Numbered from the whole stretch's first letter, positions 10,499-58,706 are shown. The stretch is DNA of 63,526 nucleotides, filler included, from Globobulimina sp. (GCA_003354225.1; 21 parts of 21 records of this genome joined end to end with filler, not necessarily neighbours in it), one strand, 5' to 3'. The notes: generated from the letters alone by a model not told the origin. A program made the numbers and translations.

Positions 10499-12024
10499 TC
10501 AATCCGAGTCATCATTATCCGATTCGTCTGTCCATGTACAATCAGTTGGTTCTTCCCTTAAAACATCCAAATAGTCTTTTTCTAAGAAGCCTAAATTTTC
10601 CCTTGCCTCTGCAAATTCGCCTTCTGCCATTCCTTCAGCAACATACCAATGAACAAAGGCTCTTTGTGAGTACATTAAGTCATAACTCTTTAATATTCGC
10701 TCCCTCAAAAATCTAGACATCAATGTATTGTTTCCGATTGCTACGGCACTGCGTTCTGGCACTCCCATACAATCAGTATCCGATATGACTGCTTTGTGTT
10801 CATGCAATCCAATCCCAAACCAAGTTGGACTCCATTCTATTTATATTATATTCCATGACACCATGACACAAAAAAAGATCGTTAAATTATAAACATACCA
10901 ACAAACGTTACTTTTTTACCAACTGTCAATTGTTTCAATGCAATGTTGGCTTTGTCTCTTTCAACATTCCCTCGAAAATACGTAGAAATTGTCATATATT
11001 TATCTCGCTCAGCATCAAAATCCAAACATTCCACCATAAAATTATCCGCATCGAAAGCTTGTTTTGCAATGTCATAAACCGTAAACTTTGGACATCCGAC
11101 ATCATAAACGGAGTAAATTATATTCATCAAATCTTTATATAACAAACCATCGTAAAGATGTTCGCTTATTCTGTCATTAAAACTGCTTCTCACGAAACCA
11201 TCCACCAATATTCTTTTATTTTGCATGAATGTCTGTTTATTTATAATTGGAGCAATTGAAGTTGTCAGAAAATGTAATCTTGGAAAATCACAGCGAATTT
11301 CATTCAAATCGCGATTGAGCTCACTTTCGAATCTAATCCCTGCCGTACACGCACAAACTACTTTGGATATAATGTTATTCAAATCATCATAACTCGGAGT
11401 TGGAACATATAATTTCCCATTGCATATATCATATACTTTTCTGTTGTCGAACACAAACGACCACTCCGTATGATCCAGAAGCCAATGGGTTGCTAATAAA
11501 GCGTTATATGCTTCGACCTGACCCGTTGAATATCGATTGTTGAATGGATAAATATGGAAACCTAATTTTGATTTCTTCCGATAATCCACGGCAATTCTTT
11601 CCAATATTAAAGCGGCTAAACCTGAACCTGTGCCACCTCCGACTGCATTATTCATGACAAAACCTTGTAAATTGTCGCATTTATCCACCAATTTACGCAA
11701 TCTGTCATTGACTTTGCCGATGAGTTCTTTACCAACACTGTAATGGCCGCGAGCAAAGTTGTTTGCTGCATCCTCTTTTCCTGAAACTAAAAATTCTGTA
11801 TCAAAAATCTTTGAATATTTACTGTCAATAACATTATCAATGATATTCGCTTCTAAATCAACCATTAAATTGCGTGGAATGAATTTGCCGGATTCAGTTT
11901 CTTCATAAAAACATAGCAATGATCGGTTCGTGTCGTCTGCTATATTTCCTTCAGTGTCAATGGCATGCTCAGCGCAATATTGTCTCCATATAGTTTGTGC
12001 TAATGGAATGCCAGCGCAGCCAAC
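10499..12024 (-). CDS. TUBA: Divergent alpha-tubulin, 5'-partial; intron 10837-10898
   Basis: GKEDAANNFARGHY, GGGTGSG, FPRLHF, FVEWSPT (after splicing) and YSQRAFVHWYVAEGMAEGEFAEARENL are alpha-tubulin signatures. Confidence 0.93.
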
Positions 12025-12124
12025 NNNNNNNNNNNNNNNNNNNNNNNNNNNNNNNNNNNNNNNNNNNNTTAATTAATTAANNNNNNNNNNNNNNNNNNNN
12101 NNNNNNNNNNNNNNNNNNNNNNNN

Positions 12125-14696
12125 TACCGAACCGAGTTATGAATCACCTAAGGACGAAGGAGCAGCGCCCGAGGCGGCCGCGAATGACGACGACACCAAA
12201 AAAGTGGAATTCCCTGAATCCCGCAAACCTGATTTCACCGCAGACGCTGAAGACGCGAAACAAACCGAGAACTTCCAGTTCAACGCCGACATCGCGCAAT
12301 TAATGAGCTTAATTATCAACGCCGTCTACTCCAACAAAGAGATTTTCCTTCGCGAATTGATCAGTAATTGCAGTGACGCGTTGGACAAAATCCGTTATGA
12401 GTCCTTAAACGACAAAGAGGCCTTAGGCGCTGAGGCCAATTTGAAGATCGAGATCATCCCCGACCCGGCCTCGCGTACACTGACCATTCGCGATACGGGC
12501 ATTGGAATGACGAAGGAAGACTTGGTGAACAACCTAGGCACCATTGCACGCTCCGGAACCAAGCAGTTTATGGAGGCCATTGCCGCTGGCGCTGACATCT
12601 CCATGATTGGGCAGTTCGGTGTGGGCTTTTATAGTGGGTACTTGGTGTCTGATAAAGTGGTGGTGCGCAGTAAGCACAATGACGATGAACAATATGTATG
12701 GGAGTCCTCTGCCGGCGGCACTTTCACGGTCCGCCCTGACACGCATTCCCCTCATCAGTTGGTGCGAGGAACTGAGATCACGTTGTTGTTAAAAGAAGAC
12801 TGTGCCGGTTATTTGGAGGACAAAAAAGTGAAAGAAATTGTGAAGAAACACTCGCAATTTGTGTCGTTTCCAATTAGTTTATTTACCATTAAAGAAGAGG
12901 AAAAAGTATGTTTTTATATCTCATATCTGCGCTTTTGCGCTTTTTTTTTATGTGATTAATCAGCGAATGTTTTTATGATTTTTATGATTGTTTTTGTAAT
13001 TTCAGGAAATTGATGACAGCGACAGCGATGACGACGATGATGATGAGGAGGATGAGACTGCGGATAAAGATGAGGCTGAAGCCACTGTGGAGGTCGCCAA
13101 GAAGGAGAAGAAAGAGAAGAAGACAGAGACTGTCAAGAAACAAGAATGGGAATTGTTGAACAAACAGAAGCCGATTTGGACCAGAAACCCAAATGAAATC
13201 ACAAAAGAAGAATATTCCGCATTTTATAAGTCGATCAGCAACGATTGGGAGGATTTCTTAGCCATTAAACATTTCAGTGTTGAAGGACAATTAGGTATGC
13301 TTTTCTACACTTATTTTCAGTTTGAAACTGAATTTTTTTTGTTCATTTTCAGATTGAAATGATGTGTTTTGATAAAATTTCAGATTGAAACTATTTTTTT
13401 TGAGTTTCAAACTGGAAACGTTTTTGAGTTTGAGATCATATTTTTTTTTTTGCGTACACAGAATTCAGCGGATTATTATTTGTGCCAAAACGCGCACCAT
13501 TTGATATGTTTGAACCTTCGAAAAAGAAGAATAACATCAAATTATTTGTGCGTCGTGTGTTTATTATGGATGACTGCAAAGAATTAATCCCCGAATGGTT
13601 ATCCTTCATTCGTGGCGTCGTCGATTCTGAAGATTTGCCATTAAATATCTCGCGAGAGTCCTTACAGCAGAACAAAATCTTAAAATTGATTAAAAAGAAT
13701 TTAGTCAAGAAGTCGTTGGAAATGTTCGCGGAATTAGCTGAGAACAAAGATGATTATAAAACGTTTTATGAGCAATTTCATAAAAACATCAAATTAGGCA
13801 TCCATGAGGACAGCAAAAACCGCAAAAAAATCTCCGATTTATTGCGATATTCATCCACCAAAACCTCCGACAAAGAGATGGTATCACTCAAAGAATACGT
13901 GGCTCGCATGAAAGATGACCAAAAAGCCATTTATTACATCACCGGCGAAAGCAAAGCCGGCGTGGAAGCGTCGCCATTTTTGGAGGCCTTAAAAAAGCGC
14001 GATTTGGAGGTATTATTCTTAGTGGACCCCATTGACGAATATGCGGTGCAGCAATTACGCGACTATGACGGCAAGAAATTGCAATGTGTGACCAAGGAAG
14101 GACTGGATTTGGGTTTGACTGAGGATGAGAAGAAGAAGAAAGAGGACGAAAAGGCGTCGTTTGAAGGGCTCTGCAAGAAAATGAAGGAGATTTTGGGCGA
14201 TAAGGTGGAGAAAGTGATCACTTCGGACCGTATGGTGGAGTCTCCGTGCTCTTTGGTAACGGGCGAATATGGCTGGAGTGCCAATATGGAGCGCATTATG
14301 AAAGCACAAGCATTGCGCGACAGTTCGATGACGAGTTATATGGTCAGCAAGAAGACCATGGAAATCAATCCCAAACACGCCATTGTGTCGACGTTGAAGA
14401 CTCGGTTTACCACCGATCCCTCGGATAAGACCATTAAAGATTTGGTGTGGTTGTTGTTTGAAACCTCATTGTTAACCAGCGGGTTTTCGTTGGATGAGCC
14501 GGTTAAATTTGCCGGACGTATTCATAAATTGATCAAATTGGGTTTAGCCATATTTGAAGATGATGGCGATGAGTCTGAGGAGGATGATGATGATTTACCA
14601 GAGGAGGACAAAGAGGATGATGCTGAGGACGATGATGATGATGAAATGCCTACATTGGAAGAAGAGGATATTTCTGCCATGGAAGAAGTCGATTAA
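12125..14696 (+). CDS. HSP90: Cytosolic HSP90, 5'-partial; introns 12906-13005 and 13295-13461
   Basis: [56 protein letters not shown] and C-terminal MEEVD. Both introns restore the frame. Confidence 0.99.
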
Positions 14697-15155
14697 ATTG
14701 GTTTTAAATATAATTGACATGAATTTAGCTTTTTTTTTTGGTTTTATATTTATTGTAGTGTTTTTCGAAGAATATACTCGATAAATCTATCTATTTTAAA
14801 TTTGAATTAAAAGAATTACATTTTATTAAGTTAAAAGTTTAAAAATGAAACAAAAAAATCAAGCATTTTGCTTGATTAAACTGCTAATGAAATTGATACC
14901 TAGCTAGGTGTCGTTAATTGTTTTTGCAAGCTAGTCACTTCAATTATCTGAGAAACGCTTTGTAAATCCAGAAACTGTTTGCCATAGGTTTGTCTTGGGT
15001 TTGCAAATCGAGAACAAAGTCAAATTTATAATTGAATTTTCGGTATACAAAGGGTNNNNNNNNNNNNNNNNNNNNNNNNNNNNNNNNNNNNNNNNNNNNT
15101 TAATTAATTAANNNNNNNNNNNNNNNNNNNNNNNNNNNNNNNNNNNNNNNNNNNN

Positions 15156-17562
15156 AAAAAAAGTTAGAGTCGAAACAGAAAGGTAAGTCTTTTAATTTCG
15201 ATGACGTTAAATTGAAGGAAGCGTTGGCTGATAATGAGAGATTAAAACAATTACTACGCAACAAAGAGGACATAATACAGCAAATGGAGCATGATTTGAA
15301 GTGTCAGCATGACACAATCGATGACATAAACAGTACGTACAGCAAAAGTAGTAAACAGTTGGAAACAAATATTGCTGTTGGAAATGATACAATTGCTGAG
15401 TTGCAAGATGAAGTTATCAGATTAAGGGAGCAAATGAAGAATGATCGAGAGTTACAGGCCTCGTTTGCAACACACAAACAACAGTTATCTAATATGGTGA
15501 ATGAGTCAATGGCTGATCAGACCACAGCGACCGTGTCGGCTTTGACTGAATTACAGAAACAACAGGAACAGTTCTATCATTTTATGCAATCAATGCAGAG
15601 TAACATTGAAAAGATATACGACAAACAACATGAACATGACAAGGAATTTGTGGAATTAAAAAATAAGGAAATGACTGAGAATCATAATTATAATAACAGC
15701 CAAACAAATAAATATGAATATTTTAATGATGTCGATTTTGATAGCATGGATATGATGGAGTTCAACACAAAAGTGGACAGTATCAAACGTGGCAAAGATA
15801 GATTTTCTACAACATCGGACAGCAATATTGCTGCTGATACGTTGTTAGCTGCTTTGACACCAAAATCTAAAACAAAACAAGAAACGAATGGTATGCGTTT
15901 TTATAGGTTTTATATTTTATTTTGTTTTCAAAATTGTGTACCATCACAGAAGCAGAAACTAGCGATGATGAGTTTGGAAACGTTGTAAATTCGATGACAT
16001 CATATTTGCAACGAGCAAGAACAGAGCGGTTGGAGTCATTGGATGAGAAAAAGGAGGAACAGAGTCAACAGACAGAGTGTGAATTTATTAATAATTTAGT
16101 AACGAGTGTGAGTAAACAATCACAGCATACAGATGGTGGCACTGACACTGGCACTGGTTACAGCATTGGGAAATGTATAGACATATTGGACTCGAGTTAT
16201 TATTGGTACTCTGCGAAGATTGTCGATATTGACGGGTTTAGGAAAAATGCATTAAAAGTGCATTATGATGGATTTGATAATAAATGGGATGAATGGATAC
16301 CATTCAAGCAATTATTCCGCATTGCTGCGCATAAATCGAGGTCACAATCGTCAGAAACTAATAACAATGAGAACCGTGGCGTTCATGCATTGCTGGCGAC
16401 GAATTTTTCCAAATTAACGTCTGGGAAAGATTTGAGAGCAGCATTTGACATAAATAATGAGAAATTATTGACTGATGTTAATGTGCTGTTAGAAGGGTAT
16501 TTATATAAAAGAGGCACTTGGAATGACTGGAATAAGCATTGGTTTTGTTTGCGGAATAAAAATGATAGAATTAAGCTATTTTATTATGCGAATCGGAAGA
16601 AGGCCACCCGTAAAGCCCAGGGAGTCATTAGTTTGCGCAAAATAAGAAAAATTGTCACTGCTAATTACGGGCATACCCAGTTTTCATTTGATATCCATGA
16701 AAAGTTTGACTTTGCCACTGGAGTGTTTGGAACTTTTCATGTCAGAATGAAAGTGAATTGAAAGACTGGATCACTGTTTTAGAATGCTGCAAAAATGTGC
16801 CTTTGGATAGTATTGAACCAAATGTCAATGCAAATGATGTATTGACTGCGGTGTCGTTGTCTTCATTGCGCAGTATACGAAAACCAGTGTATTTTGAGAA
16901 ACAGCCATTGGAATTGTCAATATTGCATGCATTGAACTCCTTGTTTCAGGAGAAAAAGTATACAGTGCAAGATTTGGAAGTTGTTTGCCAGTCATTAGCA
17001 TTGAATAAATTTGTAAATCCGCACAAGTCTGTATTCCAAAAGAGTAGCTACGATGTGAATGTATTAAACTGTGCTACAAAATGCAAAGGTTGACGTACAA
17101 TGGTTTGATCGCAGGAAAACAGAAAAAGAATTAAATATTTTGAATCAAGAATGGTTAGTTCCGCAGGATAAATTTAAAGAATTTGTAGGATTTATTTTGA
17201 ATATGGCGCTAAAACAATCATTGTTTGTGAAACGAAGACATTGGTTAACAATTAAACGCATTGAACATATTTGGTACATGTTCGATTCGCGAGAAATAAA
17301 ACCAATAAAATATAAAACTGAAAATGAAATAAATGTGTTGCAAAAATGGCTTGTTGATGTATGTAGTAATAAAGATGCGCAGTTATTGATTTGTAGGAAA
17401 TTAAAAAATGTTCAACGTCAATCATCGAAAAGTATGAAGGTTTTGGGTTTGATGGATGCACCGAATGATAAAGCTAAAAAGCCACGGAAAAGAGGTTCAT
17501 CTGTTGGTGGAGCATTTGGTGCACTTAAAACGTCATTGTCTTTGAAGAGTTTTGGAGATTGA
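15156..17562 (+). CDS. Coiled-coil / Tudor(MBT-chromo-barrel)-like / PH / Josephin-domain protein; intron 15891-15949; two frame disruptions
   Basis: Tudor-like WYSAKIVD…VHYDGFDNKWDEWI. PH: EGYLYKRGTWNDWNKHWFCL…ELKDWITVL. Josephin: VYFEKQPLELSILHALNSL…NPHKS…YDVNVL…WFDRRK…RRHWLTIK…YMFDS. The frame changes near 16722 and 17067. Confidence 0.8.
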
Positions 17563-17639
17563 ATATATTATTTTGTGTGTGTGCGCTGTGCTATATATCA
17601 AATATGTTCTTAAGTTTTGAAGATTTTCTCTTATATTGG

Positions 17640-18047: not shown

Positions 18048-18185
18048 AGTAAGTTGTGTTGCGACTCTGTTTTTACTTCTGCAAANNNNNNNNNNNNNNN
18101 NNNNNNNNNNNNNNNNNNNNNNNNNNNNNTTAATTAATTAANNNNNNNNNNNNNNNNNNNNNNNNNNNNNNNNNNNNNNNNNNNN

Positions 18186-20780
18186 GATGGATATTCACAT
18201 ATTCGTTGATAAATAACACTATTATATAATATTGGTTTTTTTTCTGGAACATGCGTTGGATGAAGAAAGGCACCGCCTCCACCACTTACAATTAATGTTG
18301 CACCCACATTCGGCATACTATTAATTTTATTATAATCCGAAATATCACATTCTGATTGCGATCGTTTCAAATTTGATGTTGATTTTAGTGCTACCGGTAC
18401 CGGCATGCTATCATTGCTGTCATTATTCTTATTGGTACTTGACATCATATTGTATTTTAAACCGGATTGTATGGCAGATTCTGATTCATGTCTGGTATAA
18501 TTATGAATGTCGCCGGCTAAGCGTAACCGTAATCGGTCACTGCCAATAACATTATTAATTAAGTATTGCAGGTTTGAGCCATAGTTTTCATGTTCATGAT
18601 CATTTATTATCCAATCTGGCAAATGCGTCATTATTATTACACGTTCACTTCGATTTTCATCATCAAAATAAGTTTCCACGATTTTGGCAAAGTACTCAAA
18701 TTGTTTTGGATCAATATCACCGTTTAAGGCATAATCCGCCGCAAATATCCACCTAAAAATAATCAGTACATAGAAACATTTGTCAATGTTCAAAACAAAT
18801 ACTTACCAATTATGTGGCAGCGCAGTCACAAAATAACTCGATGTCTGTGGCAAATACCAGCCCCCCAACCAATTGCGACTACAGATAAATCTGCAAAATG
18901 TCTGTAAACCATCGTACCAATCATGATTGCCTGGTATTATTAAACAGGTTGGACCTGCGTAGGATTCTAAATCACCATTATCCGGCAACTCCGGTTTGCG
19001 ATATGATATTTCTGGGCATATATTCCCTGCTTTTAAATTATTAATAATATATTGTGGCGGACGCATTGCGTCTTCAAATACCCTGAAAAACTTTTGTTGA
19101 AAATTCAATGCTGTGGGTCCAGGATAGGATAAATCACCACCAATCAGTAACAATTTCGCGCGTTTTAGTGTTATATCATTGGTTCCAATTAAGTACGGCT
19201 GTGCTAATAACCTCGCAATCTCGTAACCAGAATGAAACCCATCACCACAATCAGCCATAAAATCAAACCATAATTCATTTTTATTTTGCAAATAACCAAA
19301 ACACGATGAATTGCATTGTTCATAATCTGTCAATGCTGATGGACTTCTATCTATATTCGAAAAGATAATACTTGAATTCGAGTTAGATTGCTCTATATTG
19401 GCATGTTCCATTGATGCAAAAGAAAGAGTATAATTTATTTTTGCTTTTTTTCGCTGCTGTTTTTTCTGTTTTTCGTCCCTATTCGTAATAGCTTTCAACG
19501 CATCCAATGACTTATTCAGTTCTCTCTTATCATAGCGATCCAAAAAGATGCCCAAAGCGATCACAATATCCAACAACACCCAGCCGGTACTCATAGCGAA
19601 CCAGGATACCATGGGATGAATGTTACGCGGCTCTGCAGAGTGCACAATGCGGCGAATAATGGTATGTTGAATCACAAGCGTTGCTTCATTTGTTTTTAAT
19701 TCATTTTCCAAAACCATATCAGTGTTCACATCAGATGACGGTGACCTTGTTGCCATCTCAGATGATGGCGATTTTGTTGCAATATTTGTTGGTGCTGCTT
19801 CAGTCACGATTTCAGTTTCGATATATTCAGTAAGTTGATTCAAATCAGATTCTGAAAAGAATATGAACCTCTCCTTAGAAGTGCCTTCAATGAGATAATT
19901 AACGCAAATTATAGTAACACCAGTTAACCACATGGTTAATACCGGTGGTATGTCGGTATAATTTTTGTTGCCAGTCCCAGACAATGCGACTGTTTGGAAT
20001 AACTTTTGGCAAAATATGACTGATCCATCCACTTGAAAGCCAACTGATTTTTCACTGAATATCTCGAAGGTATTGGCATTGCCGCAGGTCGCATATAAGG
20101 TGGAGCAGGCCAAGGAGATGAAGGCTGAGGATTGCAATATTTCAAATATGCGCTTTCGAATTCCAATGTGGAATACAAATATACGATTTAATATGAGACG
20201 GAATGTAGCATTTATTATGGAGACAGTGAACACTGTCAAAGCATAAAAATAAGGAAATAATGCTAAGGGTTCTTCGACTAAATAGTATAAAATAGGCAAA
20301 TGAGAGAGCATGGAAATGAACAACCAGCAGTATATGAAATAGACCAAAAACGAATATCCGGTAAACTCTTTGTTGCGGATATATCGCAGTTGATAGATTG
20401 GTGAGGAAAACAATAAAAATGAGATGAATAATATCAAGTATACTAATGATATGGTGGCGGTGGAGTGTTTTATTATTATTGTACTCAAATGATGTGGCGC
20501 GTTTTGAATGAGTGATTCAAAGAATTTCGATGTATTGGATGTATTGTCATTAATATTGTTTGTAAATTTAGCGTCAAGCTCTTCGAATTTAAATGATGTT
20601 GTCATAAATTGACAGAAATTATCATAAGATATGTCTGCATAACGAATCCAAACCAATAATGAAGATATGGTTAATAATGACAGTAAATCTGATCTGCGAA
20701 ACCACCATGGCAGTTTGATTGGGACTGCATGTGCTACAAATTTACGAACACGTGAAGGTGTATTTTTATTGCTTAACCCT
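18186..20780 (-). CDS. Multi-TM calcineurin-like metallophosphoesterase (family of plant At4g11800-type proteins); partial; intron 18753-18806
   Basis: WFDFMADCGDG, IGGDLSYP, IPGNHDWYDG, THLP, AGDIHNY and VSGGGGAFLHPTH motifs, preceded by several hydrophobic helices. Confidence 0.9.
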
Positions 20781-21215
20781 AACCTTAGACAAAGTTCTCT
20801 ATAGTATTTTGGAGCAATACCACCATCAAATGTCCATTGCCTTGCTCGCTGCTAGTATCCGTTACAGTATTACCAGTCATGCCGGCATCAGTGTGTATGT
20901 CAACAAAGTTCTTGACGTTTGACAACACGTCTTTGGGGAATTCCTTCCTATGTCCCACCGCATACTTGTAGAGTTCAAGGATATCCTTAGCATCACCTCG
21001 CACAGCTTGTGGTCCACGCCTCTTCTTGATCTGCATCGCCTGTAGACCGGGCTTGCTCTCAACGGATATTCCATTGTCCTTCAAGTCTTCAATATATCGC
21101 CCATGTGCCGCTTTGNNNNNNNNNNNNNNNNNNNNNNNNNNNNNNNNNNNNNNNNNNNNTTAATTAATTAANNNNNNNNNNNNNNNNNNNNNNNNNNNNN
21201 NNNNNNNNNNNNNNN

Positions 21216-21364
21216 AAGGAGCACCAAAAGGAGATGAAAACGGCCAACCAGGAATATGTAGTGATGGTGGTGATGGTGGATATGGGAGAATAAGAATAGA
21301 CACCGGGAATCTCAATAAAGTTGGCAATGTAGTACCAAATGTTGGATACACCGCAAAATATTAA
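21216..21364 (+). CDS. 3' end of a Gly-rich protein
   Basis: The frame reads GAPKGDENGQPGICSDGGDGGYGRIRID…AKY* from the contig edge. Confidence 0.45.
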
Positions 21365-21614
21365 ACTTTTTGTACACAGTTAATTATAGTAATTAATTTT
21401 CAAGTTAATTTTCAAGTTCATTCAAGGAATACAAAGGGTGGTACGTATAAATTAGTTGTGTGTAATATTGGTCAAGGTACAGAGGTACAGCTTTTATCAT
21501 ATAGGCCATTGTAGTCATGTATTTATATAACTACACATTTTATAATATCTTTACTACAAAAAAAAAGGAAAATCTTTTTTTGCAAAGTCAAATAGTCAAT
21601 CATCGCGCTTAAAA

Positions 21615-23592
21615 ATGTCGACACGAGACACAAGACGACCAAACAGCAGAAGAGTAAGGAAAAAGAGATCAACCACACTTGATCCATCCACAAATATTGG
21701 CCTTTATTCCTCTCTCTCATCGTCACCATCACGAAAACCATATAAAAAATTAAAACGTGATCATAAATCTGAGCGTGCCATCAAATCGAAATCGCCAAAC
21801 TATAAAAGCAAACACAAACATTCACGGCATAGAGCAGCCTCTGATGCGCCATTAAAAGCCGAATTAGCAGCAATTTCACTTAAATTAGATACAAAAAGAA
21901 GCAAGAAACGAAAAACGAAAAAATATAACTCACAAACACCTGTCAATGATTACTTTGATTCGTACCCATATGCCACAAACGGTGATTATAAAAAGGCCAA
22001 AAAATCGAGCATGACACCAAAAGTGTCATTGTCAACATCCATCCAAGAATCATTATTTTCGAGCGATGATGAATTGAATGACAATAATCATATAAATGAT
22101 GCACAGAATAATAACAACAGCAGCAACCTGAACGAAATTAGAATATTAACAAATTCACACTCAATAACCCAAGCAAGCAAAAATTTAAGTTTTGTACATA
22201 AAAAGCTAAAAAAAAAAATAAATTCCAACTTCTCCCAATTTCACGGCGCATTAAACGAGCAACAAAGCAAATTATTGGACGATTTAGAAACTTTCTACGC
22301 CGACAAACAAGGCGAAATCATATCGATTGAACGCAAATTATTTGAAAATGCTCGAAAATCTAAAAATATCAAAGAAAAAGAGTACGAATTTGATACAAAG
22401 ATTAATTTCGTTATCAATACAACAAAAATATTGTCTCAAATTGACAAATATGGCCTCATTGAAACCACTAAAAATGCCAAAAAAAATCCAATTGACAATG
22501 AAGTGGATGACTTAAAGAGCGATGAAGATGATGTCTGCGATGATGGTGACAATGAGACCGATACAATGGCCATGAAACAGCAATTCATTTTAAGTGAGAT
22601 CCAAAAGCAAACCATGAATAAATTGGATGTGGTGATATTAATGGAAAAAGAGGCTAAGAAAAAAGCGCAGCAAGCGGCCAAATTGACGCGTGAAGTGGAG
22701 GACGGATTGGCGTTCATTGCAGAGCGAAGGAAGATAATTGCCGATAAAATCGCCATTGCAACGCCAGAATTGGAGAAGGCGCGAGAAGCGGTGAGGGGCA
22801 TTGATCCAAAAGATATCAATGAGATAAAATCGCTTAAATCGCCACCGAGTGTTATTGAAAATGTTATTACTGCGACTGTTATGATTTTAGGTTTGTGGAA
22901 ACGGCATACATTTGTATGCTTTTTTGTACTTGAAATGTTTTCTATGTTTTCGCACTGCACTGCGCATTGTATATTTGTGCATTATTTGGTATACAAAGTG
23001 CTTCCGAATATGTACGTACTTGTTTTTTTTTTTTACTTTGATGTGCAGCGATTTTATGTAACTGCGTGCGTTGCGTATATATTTTTAGCTTTTTTGTATG
23101 TGTTAAGGTCATAAGATTGGGCAATGGCGAGATGTGCAAAAGGTGTTAAGTTATAAATTCAAGCCAGAATTACTAAATTTTGACACTTATACATTATCGC
23201 CGGCGACTCGCAAGGCAGTGTACAAGAAATATTTAGGAAGCTCAGATTTTAATTATTCGCGCGTTTATTCCGGAAGCAAAGTATGCGGCTCTTTGTTAAA
23301 TTGGGTACTTTCCCAAATTAAATATTCACGATTATTGGATGTTATTATCCCGTTAGAAAAAGAGGTAAAAAAATTGAAAAAACAAAGTAAAAAAAAAGAG
23401 AAATTGGCTAAACAATTAATGAAAATTGTAAACGAATTGGAAGAAAATATTAAATTATATACAAATCAATGCAATCAAATGATTGATCATATCATAAAAT
23501 CTACACATTACGAATTGCAACAATTTAGCGATAAATTACAACCATTAAACGATAAATTTAACCAATTATTAAGCAATAAGGTGCTTGACTGA
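21615..23592 (+). CDS. Stand-alone dynein heavy-chain stalk/microtubule-binding-domain protein (586 aa); intron 22891-23107
   Basis: The spliced C-terminal half (ATPELEKAREAVRGIDPKDINEIKSLKSPPSVIENVITATVMILGHKIGQWRDVQK…FNYSRVYSGSKVCGSLLNWVLSQIKY…IPLEKEV) matches the cytoplasmic dynein CC1-MTBD-CC2 region. No AAA motifs are present. Confidence 0.88.
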
Positions 23593-33335: not shown

Positions 33336-34260
33336 ATTATTTGATATCAACAAAATTAAACTGAGGTTACAAAAAACATTGAAAGGAAATGGAAAGTGTC
33401 GACTCAAATGCTGAACACTGCAGAATTTGTTATGAATCTGAGCAGCCAATGCTTGCTCCGTGTTATGTTCTGGTGATTTGAAATTTGTGACAGAAAATGT
33501 TTAAATCAATACAGTGCAATCAATATTTCTCATCCATCATTTACACAATGCAACACTTGCAAGTTTTGTCCACAAATATCCACCGCATTTATCCAGTTTG
33601 TATATATCATGAAAATTGAAAACAATATGGTTAATAATTGTTGCAGATCACCAAAAGCAATTTATAGATTCAAAGTTGCTGTTGATATTTTTAAACTTAT
33701 ATCCTGTGGGCTAACCACTGTATCAATAATTGCTGCATTTTACATTATTCACCAGGAAGTGAGTTAGCTGCATACAAATCATTACAATGGTCCATCGCAG
33801 TTGTTTTTATGATTGGGTGTTTTTGCTATAATTCATGGTTGTGCACACGTACTATGTTCAGAGAAGGATTGTTGTGATTGTAGTGGCGATCATGATTCTG
33901 ATTGTTATGTATGCCCTGTTGGAGATTGTGGTGGCTGTGATCGGGGTGGTGGTGATGCAGACGGCGGCTATGTGGTTGGATTTATTTTAGCTGCGATTGG
34001 GATTGTATTGGTTGTAATTGGTATTGTTTATAGTTTAATAGTTGGTGCAGCCTTATTTTGTAATATGTCAGCAAAGCATGATGCAAAATTAATGACAAGG
34101 TACGTATGTTCGATTGCATATTTATCGAGTTAGCTGATTATTGCATCGTTGTGAAAGATTTACAGAGGTATTCAAAAGAGAAAATATTAACAATGCAATC
34201 AGAGGAACAGAATCCAAGTATGCCAGTAACAGAAGACAACAAACCAAAAGAATGCAAAAC
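33336..34260 (+). pseudogene. RING-CH (MARCH-like) E3 ligase with TM helices, multiply frameshifted
   Basis: CRICYE…LAPCxCSGDLKFVxRKCL…FTQCNTCKF can be read only by crossing 1-nt gaps at ~33464 and ~33490. A Cys/Gly-rich loop and TM segments follow. Confidence 0.75.
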
Positions 34261-36262
34261 AATCACTGTAATGTACGTAATTTTATGTATGCGCGGAAAA
34301 TAACCCGCATCATAGAACAGATTCAAATATGTACACAGAAATTCAATGATAAATGGATGTAAATAAAGCAATAACTGTATATGTATACCGATACCATGAT
34401 GGCACTTTTTATTGATAGTTTTAAACACAAACCGGAGCAAATGGGGGCTAATGGGGTCATTTATTGTATGTACCGCATTGGCATAATGTTCATCATCACA
34501 AATCAATCGCGGATTATGCATTTGATTGGCCTTTAAAATATCCGTAGAGATATTATGCATAATATGTGTACAGGGATATATGTTATCATTCAAAGGGATA
34601 TTCTTAAAACGGAGTCGCGGCAAAGCGTCATATTTAATGTGTTGTATATGGCGATGACAGAACTTCCGCGCAAACAGATTAGCTTTGATGTGGTTATCAT
34701 GGACAAAAGAGGTCGTATTTGTGTCAAGATCAATATGTGTGAGATATGGAATACATTGCTTACGCGATCCGGTTTTACCTATTTTGCGCAAATAACGCAT
34801 AGATTGATATATATCGCGTTGTCCCGAAATGGTTAAGTTAATATTCTGTCGCAGTTTGCGTTTCTTTGCCTGAGTACACAAAGCAGTCAGTATATTTTTC
34901 TGTTGTTTATATAATGCAAATTTGTCATCTTTTGATTGTTTATTAAGAAGAGAGCATTGCAACCAATCACGTTTCAAGAGGCGAAGCGCATCACTTTTAT
35001 CAATGATCTCTCGCGTACACCAAACCTGGCGATATTTATATTTACGCTTTGCAATGCTCCCAATATACTTACCAGCATTTCTATGAATAATGCAATAAAA
35101 AGTATGCGCAAAGTCATCTAATTGAGCACGTGTGGGACTGTGGAGTGATTGGATGCGAATCTGTAATTGTTTTAATTCATAAATGGCATTGATTTGATAC
35201 AAATAGATATTGATTGGGCGCTGAAAACGATAATTAACATTGTCTGCATTGTACATTTTATCGTCGGACACATTTGTATATGATACCTTACATTCACGTA
35301 CTGCAAAAATCGAAAACAAAGCATAATGATCAGAAATGGAGGAACGATTATTTCGAAGATCAACACAATTTATCACATAATTTTCATGCGAAAGCAACAG
35401 TTTATCAGATACCAAATGAAGATCCAACACATTGCCTTTAAAATGAGTTGGTATGCGCTTCATATTGACAATGGATAAATGCTTTTGATTAATGAACTCA
35501 TTCAGCCATTTAAATTCAAGACGATCCAATGTGCGATATCGATGAAAGTCCAAACGAGAGAATAATTCATTATGTATATTAAAATCACCGCTAATTATAA
35601 AGGATTTTATGTTGCGATCAGTTTGAATTAAGGTATGGTTGAACCATTTCTTTTGTTTATAGTGTTTTAATATGTTATCCATAGTATATTTCAGGATTTT
35701 AATGTCAGGCACAATGAGATTACGGCTCGATGAACGATAATAAGAAGCAAATAATACAGTTTGGTCAAATAACGTATTGGGCTGAGGATGTATGGCCACC
35801 CAAACTGAGAAATGAGTATTTTCTTTCTGTAATAATTGCGTATCCACAAAAGTACCAATAATATGTTGTTGCTGCTGATCAGTTATAGTTATAACATCTA
35901 CATACTCCTCCAATGCATTTTTAATATAAATAACGTTTTTAAGAAATAGCCGGTGTACCAGATTTAGTATGAAAATAGCCGGTAATCTCCGGGGGTTTCA
36001 AATATGTTTGATAATGGATGTGAACCTCTTGTAACGAAATAAGTGTCTGTTCCAGTTCATTAACAATATCTTGCAATGCGTCCATTTTAGCACAATTGAA
36101 GTCACCTTTGCCAGTGTGACTAAATAATCCATTAACATTCAAAGATAATACAGTCAATGAAGATTGATAATAATCATCATCAATATGACGCAAAATCATG
36201 TCACTATCGATTATATTCGGATTTATATGGCGAGATCGCCGTTGTTGCATATTATGAGTCAT
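34260..36262 (-). mobile_element. Non-LTR retrotransposon (LINE) ORF2 fragment: APE endonuclease plus pre-RT region
   Basis: LSLNVNGL, ISLQEVH, SYYR, ISGDFNIH, PTH…VLDL and SDH endonuclease motifs, then W-basic linker and GYFPRIHK just before the RT core. One +1 frame break at ~35938. Confidence 0.88.
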
Positions 36263-36405
36263 CGGNNNNNNNNNNNNNNNNNNNNNNNNNNNNNNNNNNN
36301 NNNNNNNNNTTAATTAATTAANNNNNNNNNNNNNNNNNNNNNNNNNNNNNNNNNNNNNNNNNNNNTAATATCACATTTCCGCCTAATGATTTCACCCAAA
36401 ATACC

Positions 36406-40177: not shown

Positions 40178-41864
40178 TCAATGATGATTTCTTGTCTTAG
40201 TCTTTGACTGTACTCTTTTCCTTAATTGTTGCGAATATTTAAATCTTTTTTTCAAATCCTTTTTATTCGATTCATCAATTTGTTGAACTGTAAATATTTG
40301 TTTATTACCGTTTTTATCTTGGTATAAAATGATAGATTTTAAATCTTGAAATATTAATTTCGAAGAATCTGCAAAATTTACTTGCGTCGTATCATTTGTT
40401 AAGCAAAATAGCATCGCATTTTTTTCTTTTAGATATTTTCCAACATAAACCTTATCCTCGTTGTTATTTATAAATGTAGATTTTTTTGATAATTTGTCTT
40501 GGATTTTTTCAATTTCTAAGTTATTTGCTTCAGATTTTTTCCATAAATAATCGGTAAAATATTGTAATAGTTTTACTTTTTTAGCAATCTCACTTGGAAA
40601 GTTAGTAAATGAACAATATGTAATATTATTTTTAGCGTCAATATATGTCACACTATCCTTATTACGATGCAATGTCATTTTTGTTGAATCATTAAAATAA
40701 ATTCCGGTAAATCCATTACTTAAAATGTAACCAACTCCGTATTTTTTTGAGTAATCGCAATGTTTCACCACAAAAATAGAATCATTGTTTTTTGTGATTG
40801 CTGTACATGTTTTTTTTGATGGCAACCCATCAAATTCATTATAAATGTTAACGTTTATTTTTGGTTGGTTGCTAAATGCGTTTATATTCATTTTATTTTC
40901 AAATGGTTTCCTATCTAAAATAGACAATGGTAATTGTTTAGGAATACATGTTTTTGTGAAAAAGTCATGTTCTTCAATTTCAGATAGATTTGGTCTTTGC
41001 GACGGATCAATATTTAATATTTTTGATACTAAATCTTTTGCAGAAAATGATATATTTGTTTCGGGATTACTTGGCCATTTATAATTTATTTTTTTTATTC
41101 GCCGATACGTTTCTTGAATATTTCTCGTTTCAAATGGTGGCTTTCCAGTTAATAATGTAAACTGTATACAAATGTTGCGTTTTATTGACAAAATATAAAG
41201 AGAATATTAATAAACATACCATAATCACACCCAATGACCAAATATCCACTTCATACGAATGTCCTTGACCTAATCTTTTTTGATTTAGCACTTCCGGTGC
41301 AATATAATTTGGAGTGCCGCAGATTGTGGTTTTCCGAGCACCGGAATGTTCGACGAGTGTTGCTAGCCCAAAATCACATATTTTAAGAGTTAAGTTTTTA
41401 TCCAATAATAGATTCCCTAATTTTAAGTCTCTGTGAATCACATTTTGTTTATGCAAAAACGTAACACCATTTAGGAGTTGTTTCATAAAATATCGTACTT
41501 CACGTTCGGTTAAGGTGTGTCTGGTACGAATTAATTCCATCAAACTTTGATTAGTACACATTTCTAATATTAAATACACATTATGTTCATCATCAAAATA
41601 TCTTTCAAAGGTTACAATATTATCATGCTTATCGAATGATCGATGTAATCTTATTTCTGAGATTAATTTTTGTTGATGTTCCTTGCGTTTCAATATTGAT
41701 TTATTTATTACCTTACATGCATATAATTTGCGTGAATCTACTGATTCCACACTGTAGACACTTGCAAATCCACCGACACCCAAACGACGTCCAGTTAAAT
41801 ATTTTTTAATATGATTGTGATATTTACAACAAATAATTGCTGGCGGGGCTTGTTTCATTTTCAT
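40178..41864 (-). CDS. PLK1: Polo-like kinase; intron 41162-41219
   Basis: GVGGFASVY, HRDLKLGN, DFG, TICGTPNYIAPE and GHSYEVDIWS, plus two polo boxes (DYSKKYGVGYILSNG…FNDSTKM; TTQVNFADSSKL). Confidence 0.96.
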
Positions 41865-41953
41865 TTGTAAACATCAAGAAACGGAATTAGTATCTTATAA
41901 CAACAACGAACGGATCAACTGAAACAGGTTTTGGAAAACTTTTTTCTTTCAGC

Positions 41954-48645: not shown

Positions 48646-49942
48646 TTAAATTTTGCCAATTATTATTCGTGTTTCATAATATCCAGGATACATTTCAAGA
48701 ATTTCTTCATCTTTATCGAAATAATTTGAATTAAATAATAAGGGATTCTTAATATATTTTGGAGGATTGGCATCATGAACATGTAAACATTGATTATATT
48801 TATTATATCCCCATAAATAATATTTGTTATCCGCTGTTTTTATAATATTATGATGTCCTCCACATTTAATATCAATAATTGTTTGCTTTTTTAATGTTTC
48901 ATTTGGTTGTGGTAAATATACAGATTTAGTTGAACCATTGCCACATTGATACACTGCATTCATTCCAAAACAATATATCTTATTTATGTATTAAAATGTA
49001 TCTGTAAAAATAAATAAACACAAAAAGATCAAAACTTTGTTATTTAATGATAATAATAAATTATGTGCTTCACCACAACATATTTTACCAATTTTAATAT
49101 TGTTTTGAATAAAATATTGTATTCTTGTTGGTGAATATCTATTATTATCATCTCCATGACCTAACCTACCATATTTACCATGTCCCCACGACCAAACACC
49201 ATAATTATCATCAATTGCTAAGGTATGAGAACCTCCACAATATATATCCTTAAATTTTATTTTTATTTGAATTTCTTGAATATTTGGTGATGATACAATA
49301 TCTTTACCTAATCCACAACCGGTACCCGCAATATATACTTTACCATTTGTTGTTAAAAAGGTTGTACAACACGTTGATGTGGCTACTTTTTGAATCGATA
49401 ATGGTGTATTAATTAGTGTCCATTTATTATTTATTATTATATTCATTTGTTTCTAAACCAAATTGATTCTCATTATTCCATCCGACCGCATATAATTTAT
49501 CCTCATTTGAAATACAAAATGAATGATGTGATCCATTTGGTGCTGAAAATACATTTTTTATTTTCATATCTTTCATTTGATGCCATATATTAATATTATT
49601 ATAATGTCCAACACCTAATACACCCTTTTTATTATAGCCACAACATTCATACGTTTTATCGTCAAATAAAATATAGGCTGCTACGCAGTTACCACAAGTA
49701 ACAATATTTTTTATTTCTTTTTTAAATGTTTTTATTTTTGTGATTGTTTTAATATCTTTATTTCCTCCATTTCCTTGCTGTCCACATCTGTTTTGACCAA
49801 TAGAATATAGCAGCAATAGAAAATAATAATGGAATGTATGGATGATACTAATAATATCTGTATGGATGTATTGAGTCCTGTATTTTCTAACGTATCCACT
49901 TACTAATAATTGTGACCTGCTTTTCCTGACAGGACGGTTCAT
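48646..49942 (-). CDS. RCC1-repeat protein; intron 48979-49035; frameshift near 49430
   Basis: IYCGGSHTLAID…VWSWGHGKYGRLGHGD, ICCGEAHNLLL and IKCGGHHNII RCC1 blades. Confidence 0.88.
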
Positions 49943-50311
49943 TTTTAATTCCTAATTAGTTAAAGATGGTAAAAATCTTAATTCTGAATAATGAACGTTA
50001 ACACCAATCTAGATTTTCATGAACAAAGCAGGAAACCCTAGCTCGTGCTGCAGTGTTGGTACGTTGTGAGACTCTGAAACGCCTTTCGAAGTTGGAATAA
50101 TTTGTATTTTTAGTCAAAACAAATGTGGGAATTTCATCTTTTTTTTGCAATATTTCTTCAGAATCCAAAATAATGGGTAAACCCTTTCGAAAAACGCCGT
50201 AATACTGATACCTCTTTGAATCTCATAATGAGATGAGATTATCATTGTGTTATATTAATTTATACGCAGTTTAGCATAAAAATACAAAACAAAAACATGA
50301 ATTAACACATT

Positions 50312-51513: not shown

Positions 51514-51833
51514 ATATTGAATGTGGAATTCAGATTGTTACCGTTCGAATTCTGCTCAACCTTCAGCTCAACCCGTTCGGCCCAGCTGGTCCCATCCTCG
51601 TAATCGATGTCCACGCGCCCGTACACGGTTCGCGGTTCCCAGTCGCCCTGTGTGGTGACCGAAAGACGCAGCATCGCTTCCTTGCCAGAGATGACGGACG
51701 CCCTGCCCGGTTCGACTGCTTCACCGTTCGACATGAGGGTGATCTTGGTGCCCTGGTAAATGGCGATGTCATAAAGCCATTCGGATTCATGAAGCATAAC
51801 CAGCAGCTGATCGATATTATATCGAAAGAACAA
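51514..51833 (-). CDS. Bacterial-like, GC-rich protein fragment at the contig edge
   Basis: GC is markedly higher than in the flanking DNA. IAIYQGTKITLM…VISGKEAMLRLSV recalls N-terminal domains of myxobacterial secreted metallopeptidases (from memory, unverified). Confidence 0.5.
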
Positions 51834-51848
51834 AGCTTCGTTGCTAAA

Positions 51849-52263
51849 GTGTTGGCTATTGCTAATTCTCCAATTTACGGCCTCCTATTATCTCTTCTTT
51901 CCATTAATTAAATTATAATAGGTGCAGATTTTGAATACATTGGGTGTTTCGCAGACAATGACATCCGGGCATTACGATATGATGTACTGGATTCAAATGG
52001 TTATAATCCTAAATCATGTTTTATTGCATGTCGTGAGTATCGATATTTTGCATTACAAAATGGTTCACAATGTTTTTGCGACAATGATTTTAATCAATGC
52101 ATCAAATATGGCGAATCAACAAAGTGTCAAAACAAAAGAGGTGGAAATTGGGCAAATTCATTATATATTTCATTATCTCATTACACATTATCCAACAACC
52201 AAAGCAATCACACATATCATGGTAGAAAACTCCACCAAATCCAGCAAAGTTTCGTACATTAAT
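51849..52263 (+). CDS. WSC carbohydrate-binding domain exon (missed by the ORF track)
   Basis: The frame reads FEYIGCFADNDIRAL…CFIACREYRYFALQNGSQCFCDN…YG…C…GGNWANSLY. An in-frame TAA at 51909-51911 interrupts a signal-peptide-like leader. Confidence 0.8.
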
Positions 52264-52344
52264 TAATATCCAAATCAATATAATTAAAAAATATAAGTGC
52301 ACTTTATTCCGCAATAACAAAACATACAGACGCACCCTATACAT

Positions 52345-54442: not shown

Positions 54443-54542
54443 NNNNNNNNNNNNNNNNNNNNNNNNNNNNNNNNNNNNNNNNNNNNTTAATTAATTAANN
54501 NNNNNNNNNNNNNNNNNNNNNNNNNNNNNNNNNNNNNNNNNN

Positions 54543-54932
54543 TATCTAAAACTGACAGGATTTATCGGAACTTTTACATCCTTCGTATCCACATTTTATG
54601 TCTTATATTTAATGAAACATACTCCCTCTACAATGGAAATGATAATAAATGGCAAAATATCTGAATTTCCCAACAAAAATATAATATTTAATAAAATAAT
54701 GGCCATGGCATTAATATTAGCATCATTTATATGGTGCATTATTGGTTGGGATCTGGTGAATAAATTAAATTTTAATGGATGTTCGCATGAATTAATAACA
54801 CAAACAATTTTAGGATGGACTGTTGTACAAATTATATTAATGATTTGTGCTTTATCTTCGAGGTTAGTAAAGATTAAAAAAGTAGTTGATTCTGAAGCTG
54901 ATGTGGATGATGAAGAGGGAAGTGTTAAATAA
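54543..54932 (+). CDS. 3' part of a small multi-TM protein
   Basis: Hydrophobic helices (ILASFIWCIIGW; ILGWTVVQIILMIC). Confidence 0.5.
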   Translation, partial: YLKLTGFIGTFTSFVSTFYVLYLMKHTPSTMEMIINGKISEFPNKNIIFNKIMAMALILASFIWCIIGWDLVNKLNFNGCSHELITQTILGWTVVQIILMICALSSRLVKIKKVVDSEADVDDEEGSVK

Positions 54933-55073
54933 CAAATATGTATGATGTTATTTTTTATTGTATATCAGTGACAGCACGTTTCCTTTGCGTTTCTTCCCTC
55001 ATATCTTGTAAACGCAGCTCCACAGCAAACTTTTTTCGGCTATTTTCCACGTTAGCTTTTGTTCATTTGAATA

Positions 55074-56538
55074 ATGGATGTTAAATACTTGGATTGGGTT
55101 ATTGAATCATCGCAGTTCATTATTGTGTCAGCGTTATTTATTTTTCACATTTACAGAAGTTCCGCAGTTGCCAAAAATAAAAGAGAAGCGGCTGTCGAAT
55201 CAGATTTATGTGGATTTATTCAATTACGTCATGTATCATACCTAGTATTATTTGTTTATTTCCTTAAAGCATTATTTAATTTAAGTAAATCAGCCATTGA
55301 TGGAACGACAGATATTGACTACAATCATAATCGATGCGTATTATTTCAAAAAATCGATGCAACATTAGGCATAATCGCACGTCTCTTTATTCATTTATTT
55401 GTAGCAATGAGATCAAGATTCGGCTCAACGATTCCAACCATATGGCATAAAATTGGTTTAATGCTTATTTTATCCGATATTGGATTAATATTAATGCCGT
55501 GGATGATTCACCATTCTGTAAATGCAATATACGCGAATAATATTTGTGTCGTTATATCATATAATAAAATATTGCTTTGTTGGGTGTTATTTTCTGATTT
55601 TTTTATCGGCATTTATTGTTTATTTGTATTTGTATTGCCACTAAAAGCCGTATTAAAATGGGAGCGAAAAACTGTGTCACCAACGACCACCGCTACACCA
55701 ACGCGAACCTCCGTCGCTTCATTCTCGCCATCCACACAAACGCAAACACATAGACATAGATACAGCCATAGCAGAGAAATTAAGGAAATTCGCAGAGTTC
55801 GCTCGTTGACAGAAACGGTGCATAAAATAGTGTTATTTAGCAGTATTATGATAATATCATCACTCGTAATTATTAGCATTGCATTTGTTTTGAGTCTAAG
55901 TCACTTCGATAATGCCATTGTGTTATGTATGTTAAAAATCTGCGCATTTTTGTCTATTTTGTAATATTAACTATTTAAATACAGCTTTATTACCGCCGAT
56001 TGACAACATATTAAACTCCTGGTGCATTATATTGCAATTTGCAGATATTAGCAGTGATGCATTGTTTGGCAGAACAATTATATCATTTTTTCAATGTAAT
56101 TACTGTACTATGCAATGTTGGTGTTGTTTATGCAAAAGTACAGCAAATCAGGATAATGACAATAATGATATTAATCCTAATAATAATGTCAACAATGCTA
56201 ATAATCACAGGCTGAGCATACCGGTACCGGTATGTGAATGGCCAGGCACTCCAACAATGACAAGTTATAAACACAAGCCATCGTTTGCGAGCACATTAAG
56301 CCACATAAATTTAAGTATGACAGTGTTGCATCAAACTAAAATGGACCGAAAACCATCAGTATCAAACGGGCCTGGTATTGCCGATAAGACTGATTATAAT
56401 AACAAAGCCATTACTGATTCAAAAGCCGTTGTTGTTGTTGAGGAAGACAACGGAATGGATGATAATAAATTTAACAGTCATATTTTGTTGGCGTTGACTC
56501 CCGCTCCGTCCATGAATGGCCATGAATATCTCGATTAA
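55074..56538 (+). CDS. Seven-TM (GPCR-like) protein; intron 55927-55984
   Basis: About seven hydrophobic helices, Cys before TM3 and in the second extracellular loop, spliced TM7 LLPPIDNILNSWCIILQF, and a Cys-rich (palmitoylation-like) tail. Confidence 0.7.
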
Positions 56539-56547
56539 AAGAAATCC

Positions 56548-56614
56548 AATGGAGCTCTTTCAACATTGTAATGGAGCTCTTTTAACGAAAAAATGGTAAT
56601 GGAGCTTTTTGAAC
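56548..56614 (+). repeat. Three direct copies of AATGGAGCTYTTTNAAC immediately 3' of the 7TM stop codon
   Basis: Copies begin at about 56548, 56570 and 56598. Confidence 0.8.
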
Positions 56615-57570
56615 AATTTTTTTTGATTTAATATAGTTTTGTATACCTACCACGTATACCTGTTCAGATTGTAAATTGGATGAATTCTGACAATATGCCA
56701 TCTGAATTGAGTTATATTTTTGTTTGAAGCTCATTCTTTTTGTTAATATTCTTTTTTTTGTTGTGTTGAACTGATTCGATTTTATGCGTCTGTGTGTTTT
56801 TTGTTTGTCACGCGAGTTATATTTGTATTTTCTATAATATGTTTCATTTTTTTTTCAGTCATTATCGTTATTTTTATATATTTGTTATAAAATATGTTAA
56901 ATTTTATCTTTATATTATATACTATTATTGTTTAAAAAGCTAAAATTGGGTGTCCCGGCTTTTGAATCTCAAAGCAAGGCTGTAGCAGTTTCAAATTCTG
57001 ACTTCAAATTGTCTGATCGTTTTATTTGTAAAGTCAGTAAATCCCTTTTCAAGTCAGTAAATTTGAAAATGCTGCAGCCTTGCTACCAAGAACAAAAAAC
57101 AGTTCATATGAGTAAACATCACGAGGATGTTCCAGCAATCCATGAGACTGAAATAGGACTTTATTTAACTACTGAGTTGATATTAGCAAAAAACATTAAA
57201 AGACGAAGATCCGATCATAAATAATGACTGTTCTTCCCGTTACTATTGTTATATAGCAACATAGATCCGTTCGATGTTCCAGATAAAATCCAGAAATTCT
57301 TTTCCAGATAATAATTTTTATGATTTTTATGTTTTTTATTTTTACCTTTCTTCTTCTGTATGTTATTGTTATTGTTGTCATTACCATTCGTTGACGATAT
57401 TTTCACATCAAATTCATTAAAACTCAATTCCATATCATCATCACTAAAATGGTCCTCATGGTCATCACAANNNNNNNNNNNNNNNNNNNNNNNNNNNNNN
57501 NNNNNNNNNNNNNNTTAATTAATTAANNNNNNNNNNNNNNNNNNNNNNNNNNNNNNNNNNNNNNNNNNNN

Positions 57571-58706
57571 GGCAGATCAATATGACAATTATCAAAACAT
57601 TTGGCCCATTGTTTGAGTTTTCTTCTCATATCGAGACATCTTAATTGCAATACTTCCTCATTCGCAGTTCCTGCACAATACAAAATATCCGGACACTGAT
57701 CGTAACTCCACACTATCGGTTCATTACTAAAATGAAAATCACTGTCATTCGGATCAGTTTCATACACGTAATTCCATCGATTATTTACAAAATTATATTT
57801 AATTACATCACCAATCTCAGACACGAGATACATTTTATTTTCATTATGCATATGAGACATATTCCATTTTAAATTATATGGTTGAAAGTGTTCACTTTTA
57901 CACTGAACCGGTTGAATATGTGTCCATTTATTTTCATACAAGTCATAGATTGTAAATTGTAAATCAAAATCATAGATTGTAGAAGAATAAGATACAGCTT
58001 TTGCAACAGCAAACAACGCATCTTTGCCTTCCAAATATGTCATAATCCATTTACTATGTTCCTGTGTGGATATTTGTTGAATGAATGTAAGTTTTGCATC
58101 GATGTCTTGCAATTTAAGCCGATATATATCCATGTCAAGGACTGCAATGATACCCCAATATGGTCCGCAATAAAACCAGTTATCAAACAGTAAATGACTT
58201 GTATTTGGTGAGAATGATTGATATGTGTTGCTATTATCTTTAACGTTTTTGTATATATTATCAGATTCAAACATATATAACATATTGAATATTTTTGTTT
58301 TATTGTATGCCGTTTTGCGCGTCAGAATGGCATCATATTTTGTGTTGGGTTTAATATGGTTGATGTTTAATAATTGTTTGAGTTGGCTTGAATTGATCGA
58401 ATCGGATAGGTTTGGAATATGACATGAAATATCAAAATATTGCTGACTCGCACCGGAGTTATATGAATGTAATTCAATTACATTTTTGTTGAATTGGGGA
58501 TTGTTTGGCGAGGTTACATTCAATACATGAAATGCAGCGTAATTGTTAATGAATATCAACTTTGAAATAAAGTAAAATTGATAGCATATTTGACAAATGT
58601 CGTTTGGTGGTGATGATGTTTCGTGTATTTCACGTAGAAAACCGTGTGTTAATAACTCACATTTATTTATTAATTTTGATTCAGACTTACTTTCTTTGTT
58701 TCCCAT
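57571..58706 (-). CDS. Degenerate Kelch/beta-propeller protein with MGNKES myristoylation-like start; 3'-partial
   Basis: IYDLYENKW and KYNFVNNRW blade ends, plus the N-terminal LLTHGFLR…PPNDICQICYQFY module. Confidence 0.65.

Follow-up and report, generated by a model that had tools for sequence, protein, structure and literature searches.

Among described protein modules, the F-box (PF00646/PF12937) and its poxviral reduction, the PRANC domain (PF09372), come closest to the module treated here. According to the available part of PMC12101541, the F-box site of Skp1 is formed by Skp1 helices 5-8, and the available part of PMC4353913 describes a poxviral F-box that still binds Skp1 when cut to its first helix, the F-box of PRANC proteins such as cowpox CP77 being reduced towards that helix. 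The stretch of DNA analysed here (the window; 63,526 nucleotides, filler included) comes from the foraminifer Globobulimina sp. (GCA_003354225.1) and consists of 21 unrelated contigs of about 2.93 kb each, joined by spacers (source assembly: 70.2 Mb in 48,370 contigs). The original prediction had claimed that four unrelated proteins of the window share a helical module of about 30 residues, which belongs to a very large family and might be a cullin-adaptor box. We find that the module is probably a docking box for foraminifer-specific SKP1 paralogs, which would serve as an F-box but is built differently, as suggested by a modelled complex and by natural fusions of the two partners.

Module copies in the window

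All four flagged peptides are present in open frames on the minus strand, as follows.

57571..58706, minus strand: Kelch-type propeller gene with the module; open frame, 3' end beyond the contig
58563..58670, minus strand: module copy at the N-terminus of this divergent Kelch-type propeller protein, 55.9 bits; the copy used for co-folding
48649..49942, minus strand: RCC1-repeat gene; open-frame pieces 49430-49951, 48994-49452 and 48649-48990, with Pfam RCC1 and WD40_RLD on each
49820..49924, minus strand: module copy at the N-terminus of the RCC1-repeat protein, 40.7 bits
10499..12024, minus strand: divergent alpha-tubulin gene; Pfam Tubulin and Tubulin_C, 5' end cut by the contig end
11089..11217, minus strand: 43-residue insertion in alpha-tubulin; proline-less module copy (core 11104-11211), 15.9 bits
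31543..31656, minus strand: flagged fourth copy, unsupported as a member, -5.7 bits

The comparison of a profile with a control that had been proposed as a check was carried out with a two-block profile of 110 rows (the window's own copies and one test-sample row were left out, and L032 had been removed from the first module alignment because of a stop within its range), the control being 146,451 reversed-peptide positions. The scores of the Kelch, RCC1 and tubulin copies were reached by none of these positions, so three of the four claimed copies stand, whereas 17 of them reached that of the fourth, a score for which chance alone predicts about 1.5 occurrences in the window; the 305-residue frame that holds it has no Pfam match. 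The Kelch protein of the window has no Pfam match either, and its label is taken from an hhalign probability of 98.7% to Pfam-labelled Kelch relatives over 319 columns, the shared module included among them. The first 57 residues of the RCC1 protein match all 150 scored candidates from its own genome with 57-100% identity.

The 114 aligned copies share the consensus [EK]LLVxG[YF]IR, a linker of 5-14 residues and IPx[DES]IIxLCxx[FY]Y, with glycine (111/114), arginine (111/114) and proline (109/114) near-invariant. For a 46-residue piece of the Kelch copy (58551-58688), AlphaFold2 predicted two helices (residues 2-22 and 29-45) with a predicted local distance difference test score (pLDDT) of 81.5 and with many hydrophobic positions exposed. 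The module is a conserved helix-loop-helix placed on many unrelated interaction domains. It has no significant Pfam match of its own: no F-box was among the Pfam families listed at E up to 10 for 10 or for 114 members (for the 114, the best 25 of 44 families, the remainder being isolated weak matches), nor was one found in 88 whole proteins at E 0.001. A PDB sequence search with module profiles gave chance-level matches only (E 0.095 or worse). Searches with the 46-residue model gave no Foldseek match at E 0.001 and a best VIA-align Z of 5.7 (root-mean-square deviation 1.6, 45 aligned residues), which is the level of generic helix pairs (neither result excludes any family). The ESM Atlas gave no usable named match (unnamed short clusters at 0.93-0.95, recognition being below the reliable range).

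Size, spread and architecture of the family

The claim of a very large family is confirmed by the counts obtained from the genome. A strict DNA pattern for the first half of the module gave 382 matches against 49 in the reversed control, the second half being visible by eye in 24 of 30 returned loci (weak in 2, with frames that end earlier in 4), and a pattern for the second half gave 74 matches against 5. In 60 contigs chosen by their numbers (470,791 bases), 9 of the 621 open frames scored at least 15 bits, which extrapolates to about 1,340 copies in the genome (614-2,548), a rough figure because the sampled contigs are long. A single RCC1 subfamily alone has at least 150 matches in its own genome, and ordinary F-boxes have at least 57. 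In public collections, 342 clusters (50% identity) were retrieved with a 10-sequence profile at an E-value of 0.001 or better, and a full module copy was found in 146 of 150 listed matches (the other 4 were removed as low-complexity repeats). All species-labelled relatives are foraminiferal (Ammonia, Globobulimina, Bolivina, Elphidium and Nonionella; 14 labelled of 30 looked up). A word-based protein search for the module yielded only 2 of 8,000 scored candidates, and no description of the module or of foraminiferal SKP1 paralogs was found in a literature search that left most subscription papers outside.

In 71 of 85 public matches of at least 150 residues, the module begins no more than 60 residues from the N-terminus. 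In the 88 longer public proteins scanned, the accompanying domains were Kelch (12), SPRY (6), TLDc (4), RCC1-like (1) and other families (8, among them E2, Ras, RasGEF and Pumilio), with no domain recognised in 57; the partners in the Globobulimina genome include an AAA ATPase, a myosin head, an F5/8 domain and a DnaJ zinc finger. Near-C-terminal copies behind Kelch repeats are also found in this genome, and a few proteins carry tandem copies. Individual examples are its fusions with an E2 enzyme (P0103), a Ras-family GTPase (P0051), a RasGEF (P0006; two copies) and the end of a myosin head (L073). In L033 (31-1056) the module precedes a Vps4-like AAA domain with Walker motifs that seem degenerate by eye, and in L035 (1261-2882) a G-alpha frame is closely followed by a copy.

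Remodelled SKP1 paralogs as candidate partner

The genome encodes a canonical SKP1 and divergent paralogs. One of the latter, L103, matches Skp1_POZ (PF03931, E 2.7e-8) and 33 solved Skp1 sequences (best E 1.4e-12) without matching PF01466, and its segment after the last shared helix is a different, near-invariant one that replaces canonical helices 7-8. This rebuilt C-terminal segment is common to 118 of the 130 listed relatives of L103, with identities up to 95-100%. A phylogeny of 25 SKP1 domains, in which midpoint rooting served the drawing only, places the canonical sequences in one group (support 100/97) and the divergent ones in two (100/98 and 98/95). The paralog has retained the AANYMD segment and the BTB part, presumably the region where SKP1 meets the cullin, and the genome holds seven cullin C-termini; a literature search for Skp1 cullin-binding mutants found nothing. 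One of the loci with a cullin C-terminus (L120, 1090-1704) continues in frame into a domain that appears ubiquitin-like by eye.

Residues 24-178 of L103 were co-folded with the Kelch copy of the window, which gave a score of 0.68 (0.65, 0.69 and 0.68 in single runs) against 0.00 for the best of three controls, with at least 91% of the contacts in common among runs and a partner pLDDT of at least 67. Of microbial pairs, 51 of 78 solved ones but only 2 of 108 mismatched ones attain the passing mark; of eukaryotic pairs, 71 of 105 solved ones do so (39 of 65 when those with a like complex are set aside), as do 2 of 126 unrelated ones. The contacts of lowest error join module residues L12, L13, G16, F17 and R19 to SKP1 residues 149-171, and the invariant glycine and arginine lie near SKP1 I164, I165 and E168 in the model. 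All 12 most conserved positions of the module fall inside the modelled interface, and the 28 interface residues are 84-100% conserved (101 sequences). From the residue lists we infer that the proline helix of the module is what would lie on SKP1 residues 123-150 (the tool names first-helix pairs only).

Could the module bind canonical SKP1 as well or instead, as a truncated F-box variant that feeds the ordinary SKP1-cullin-F-box (SCF) ligase, with no separate channel? At 8 of the 12 modelled contacts within residues 123-150, canonical SKP1 has the identical residue, co-folding also passes close cousins of a true partner, foraminiferal F-boxes often read IP.D, and F-boxes reduced to helix 1 bind ordinary Skp1 (PMC4353913, available part). 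However, 9 of the 11 SKP1 residues with the lowest-error contacts differ from the genome's canonical SKP1 (among them L156/K, I164/R and E168/Q), and the fusions described below occur in the divergent clades only, although their numbers are small. We consider binding to canonical SKP1 unlikely.

Fusions of the module to SKP1 domains

Fusion of two parts into one protein often marks them as partners. The paralog search matched 18 contigs, and in 7 of the 14 SKP1-family loci examined the module stands directly before the SKP1 domain, 6 of these copies scoring at least 10 bits (L216 10.9; L219 -2.5, by alignment only; L220 22.6; L222 14.7; L223 16.3; L224 28.1, across an inferred 68-base GT-AG intron; L226 15.7). 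The background was 8 of 345 unselected long frames, and the fusion modules matched the module profile with 90% in a profile comparison. Fusions are found in both divergent clades and in neither of the 2 canonical copies, and the public protein P0264 likewise has a module before its SKP1 domain (19.4 bits). Having passed co-folding and occurring in natural fusions, the remodelled SKP1 paralogs provide a candidate partner for the proposed cullin adaptor.

Some of these loci have further domains: a SAM domain stands at the start of L219 and L220, a UBA domain at that of L224. L225 was rejected as a fusion (-6.3 bits), as it aligns as an ordinary SKP1 sequence. Two contigs of a viral collection encode SKP1-like proteins (L229, 2659-3306; L230, 2746-3336), one canonical and one long-branched, and no module was seen in their frames of at least 90 residues (the viral scan was made with the SKP1 paralog).

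Comparison with known boxes

The second helix of the module resembles the F-box. Against the profile of the genome's own F-boxes (L113 and L137 were removed from the alignment because of stops), hhalign gave P 8.6e-4 over 17 columns, and 6 of the 26 genome F-boxes scored above the 99th percentile of the null on the second block of the module. This proline-capped helix matches F-box helix 1, a weak likeness that is missing in the tubulin copy. As with the F-box, the module is mostly N-terminal to Kelch, SPRY or RCC1 domains, and it is modelled on the C-terminal helices of SKP1, which form the F-box site (PMC12101541, available part). The differences concern the layout: the F-boxes of the genome continue to VCKxW, whereas conservation of the module stops at FY and the helices 2-3 that would follow the proline helix are lacking; an extra conserved GYIR helix lies upstream, with a variable linker; copies are also C-terminal or inserted; and the genome retains its ordinary F-boxes separately. 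The module is not a member of the Pfam F-box (no match, no helices 2-3), though it is F-box-like by model and architecture.

The likeness to PRANC lies in the reduction to the first helix (PMC4353913, available part). PRANC differs in standing C-terminal to ankyrin repeats and in using the Skp1 of the host, and the module in being cellular, in having its own upstream helix and in being accompanied by remodelled SKP1 paralogs.

The SOCS/VHL box is of similar size and has the same order of helix, linker and proline-capped helix; the module differs from it in being mostly N-terminal. SOCS_box had no genome match at E 0.1 (the assembly is incomplete) and was not among the families listed for the 114 members. 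Five Skp1_POZ matches were found in the genome, by eye four SKP1-like proteins and one BTB protein, and none of them read as Elongin C (in a fragmented assembly). Of the expected kinship with F-box and SOCS modules, the F-box-like side is supported, and the cullin-adaptor idea gains a candidate partner in the SKP1 paralogs, but the half that involved SOCS and Elongin B/C found no support.

A third type of likeness is that to self-dimerising helix pairs, the RIIa/Dpy-30 domain of protein kinase A and LisH, which are also two short helices in loose register with the module. If the module were of this type, it would dimerise propeller or SPRY proteins or dock amphipathic helices, with no ligase involved. 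The module and one own-genome RIIa domain (the one clean reference) align with both halves in register over 24 columns with P about 0.1, 1 of the 114 members matches LisH_TPL at E 0.03, and the two-helix model with its exposed hydrophobic positions and the tandem copies would suit such a role. Against it, hhalign gave probabilities of 0.6% for RIIa and 0.7% for LisH (7 own-genome LisH-like rows), the genome's 7 LisH and 7 RIIa matches include no module copy, and the co-fold and the SKP1 fusions would be left unexplained. To this alternative, too, we assign a low probability.

A proposed receptor system

The module is best read as the tag by which receptors would join a parallel SCF-like ligase system peculiar to the lineage, with the SKP1 paralogs as candidate partner. 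On the model, its second helix (IPxDIIxLCxxFY) would occupy SKP1 residues 123-150 in place of F-box helix 1, and its first helix (LLVxGYIR) would pack on the rebuilt helix of the paralog, residues 149-171. By analogy with SKP1 elsewhere, the paralog may bind one of the genome's cullins, and ubiquitylation would follow. The attached Kelch, SPRY, RCC1 or TLDc domain would select the substrates, and tagged housekeeping folds (tubulin, AAA ATPase, E2, myosin) might act as baits for the partners of those proteins.

Several points weigh against this. As 23 of the 40 residues of the module belong to the interface, the argument from interface conservation is partly circular. Skp1-F-box complexes are solved, so the pass in co-folding may reflect likeness or memory, and many solved Skp1 chains match the paralog in a PDB sequence search; the pass does not discriminate among members of the SKP1 family, and it was obtained for a single pair (L103 and the Kelch copy), without an alignment and with a partner pLDDT of only 67-71. 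The hhalign probability against the F-box is only 24%, falling to 7% with a larger alignment. Five of the fusions share a leader and perhaps go back to one event; collapsed to two or three events, the fusions have P about 0.02 or 0.002, and L219 scores below zero while L224 depends on its inferred intron. Because the module is fused to many unrelated folds, some fusion to SKP1 could be due to chance. Finally, binding may fail in the copies without the proline, namely the tubulin copy and those of the leader-sharing fusions.

Docking on the SKP1 paralogs would also be compatible with a paralog that serves as a cullin-free hub or chaperone, stabilising or localising the tagged proteins. A myosin head, RasGEF, Ras and tubulin are among the many partners that do not belong to the classic substrate receptors, L103 is only distantly similar to solved Skp1 chains, and SKP1 reportedly has SCF-independent roles in other organisms. 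Retention of the AANYMD segment and the BTB part, which we assume to face the cullin, and the typical receptor domains of most named partners argue against a hub, which appears quite improbable to us.

The docking box for SKP1 paralogs would give a very large unannotated class of foraminiferal proteins a concrete candidate partner, and the SKP1-box handshake, treated as fixed across eukaryotes, would have been rebuilt on both sides into a parallel channel. More tentatively, since here we lean slightly towards doubt, the paralogs may form a second, orthogonal SCF-like system, in which dedicated SKP1 paralogs read a box that canonical SKP1 ignores, with about a thousand receptors, and in which tagged tubulin and similar proteins route their partners to degradation. 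If so, box receptors would far outnumber the ordinary F-boxes detected, and the partners of the baits would include the unusual microtubule subunits of foraminifera.

The module in tubulins

The insertion in alpha-tubulin corresponds to a gap of 42-45 columns in 11 other tubulins and is present in the paralog L043. It follows the strand that ends in PRLHF and precedes the next helix, a site that we take to be the tubulin M-loop. Only its first block scores (17.4 bits; second block -1.6), and a hidden Markov model trained on public matches alone missed this copy. The gene has a 62-base GT-AG intron (10837-10898), and 4 public runs (at most 3 samples from 3 studies, run type unrecorded or guessed) each have one contig that skips the intron and crosses the insert without gaps. 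The ratio of nonsynonymous to synonymous differences (pN/pS) against L043 is 0.40 in the insert, 0.38 in the downstream flank and 0.21 in the upstream flank (few sites). The insert is probably exonic, because the intron-less contigs cross it without gaps and its pN/pS is like that of the downstream flank. In a beta-like tubulin (L062, 1807-1923), the module occupies another site, which lies in the C-terminal domain (21.2 bits, via its second block); since the sites differ, tubulins took up the module at least twice. Together with the Pfam scans and the counts given above, the tubulin alignment bears out the view of a lineage-expanded module without a Pfam name that was shuffled onto propellers and into tubulin.

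The odd internal sites in two different tubulins and the at least 150 near-identical starts of one RCC1 subfamily might suggest passive spread, the module being a mobile exon or DNA element without a shared protein partner. Its conservation is at the amino-acid level, however, with varied codons and linkers of differing length, and it is kept across the 342 public clusters; the diversity of codons largely refutes passive spread, which we regard as very improbable.

Retaria-specific alpha2- and beta2-tubulins with altered lateral contacts have been described (PMC5455982); in the available part of that article, 'insertion' is used three times, each time for other proteins. A docking box in the lateral-contact loop of alpha-tubulin would tie protein turnover to these aberrant tubulins. 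A word-based protein search found no relative of the insert region among 47 candidates, no RNA record was listed as holding the tubulin stretch, and the AlphaFold2 model of the tubulin was unusable (pLDDT 38.9).

In the insert-bearing alpha-tubulin (10885-12024) and in L043, three residues just before PRLHF are missing, and the GGGTGSG motif is intact. Divergent tubulin paralogs are numerous in the genome (L042-L071), with 49 matches to one 172-residue stretch.

Other genes in the window

The Kelch gene has a divergently oriented neighbour (58716-60226), a GTPase of the interferon-inducible IIGP type with a C-terminal SAM domain. A non-LTR retrotransposon-type endonuclease (Exo_endo_phos_2) lies at 34141-36265, and a multi-pass membrane protein at 18188-20851, whose end resembles a calcineurin-like phosphoesterase by eye, had no Pfam match at E 0.001 on the scanned frame. 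A fragment of a zinc-binding dehydrogenase at a contig end (26849-27175) is unlike the neighbouring genes and is possibly foreign or chimeric, and a dynein-stalk-like fragment follows a long low-complexity region (21546-23589). The window further contains genes for Hsp90 (12126-14693), a Tudor-knot plus PH protein (15907-16758), a Polo-like kinase (40181-41873) and annexin (62290-63228).

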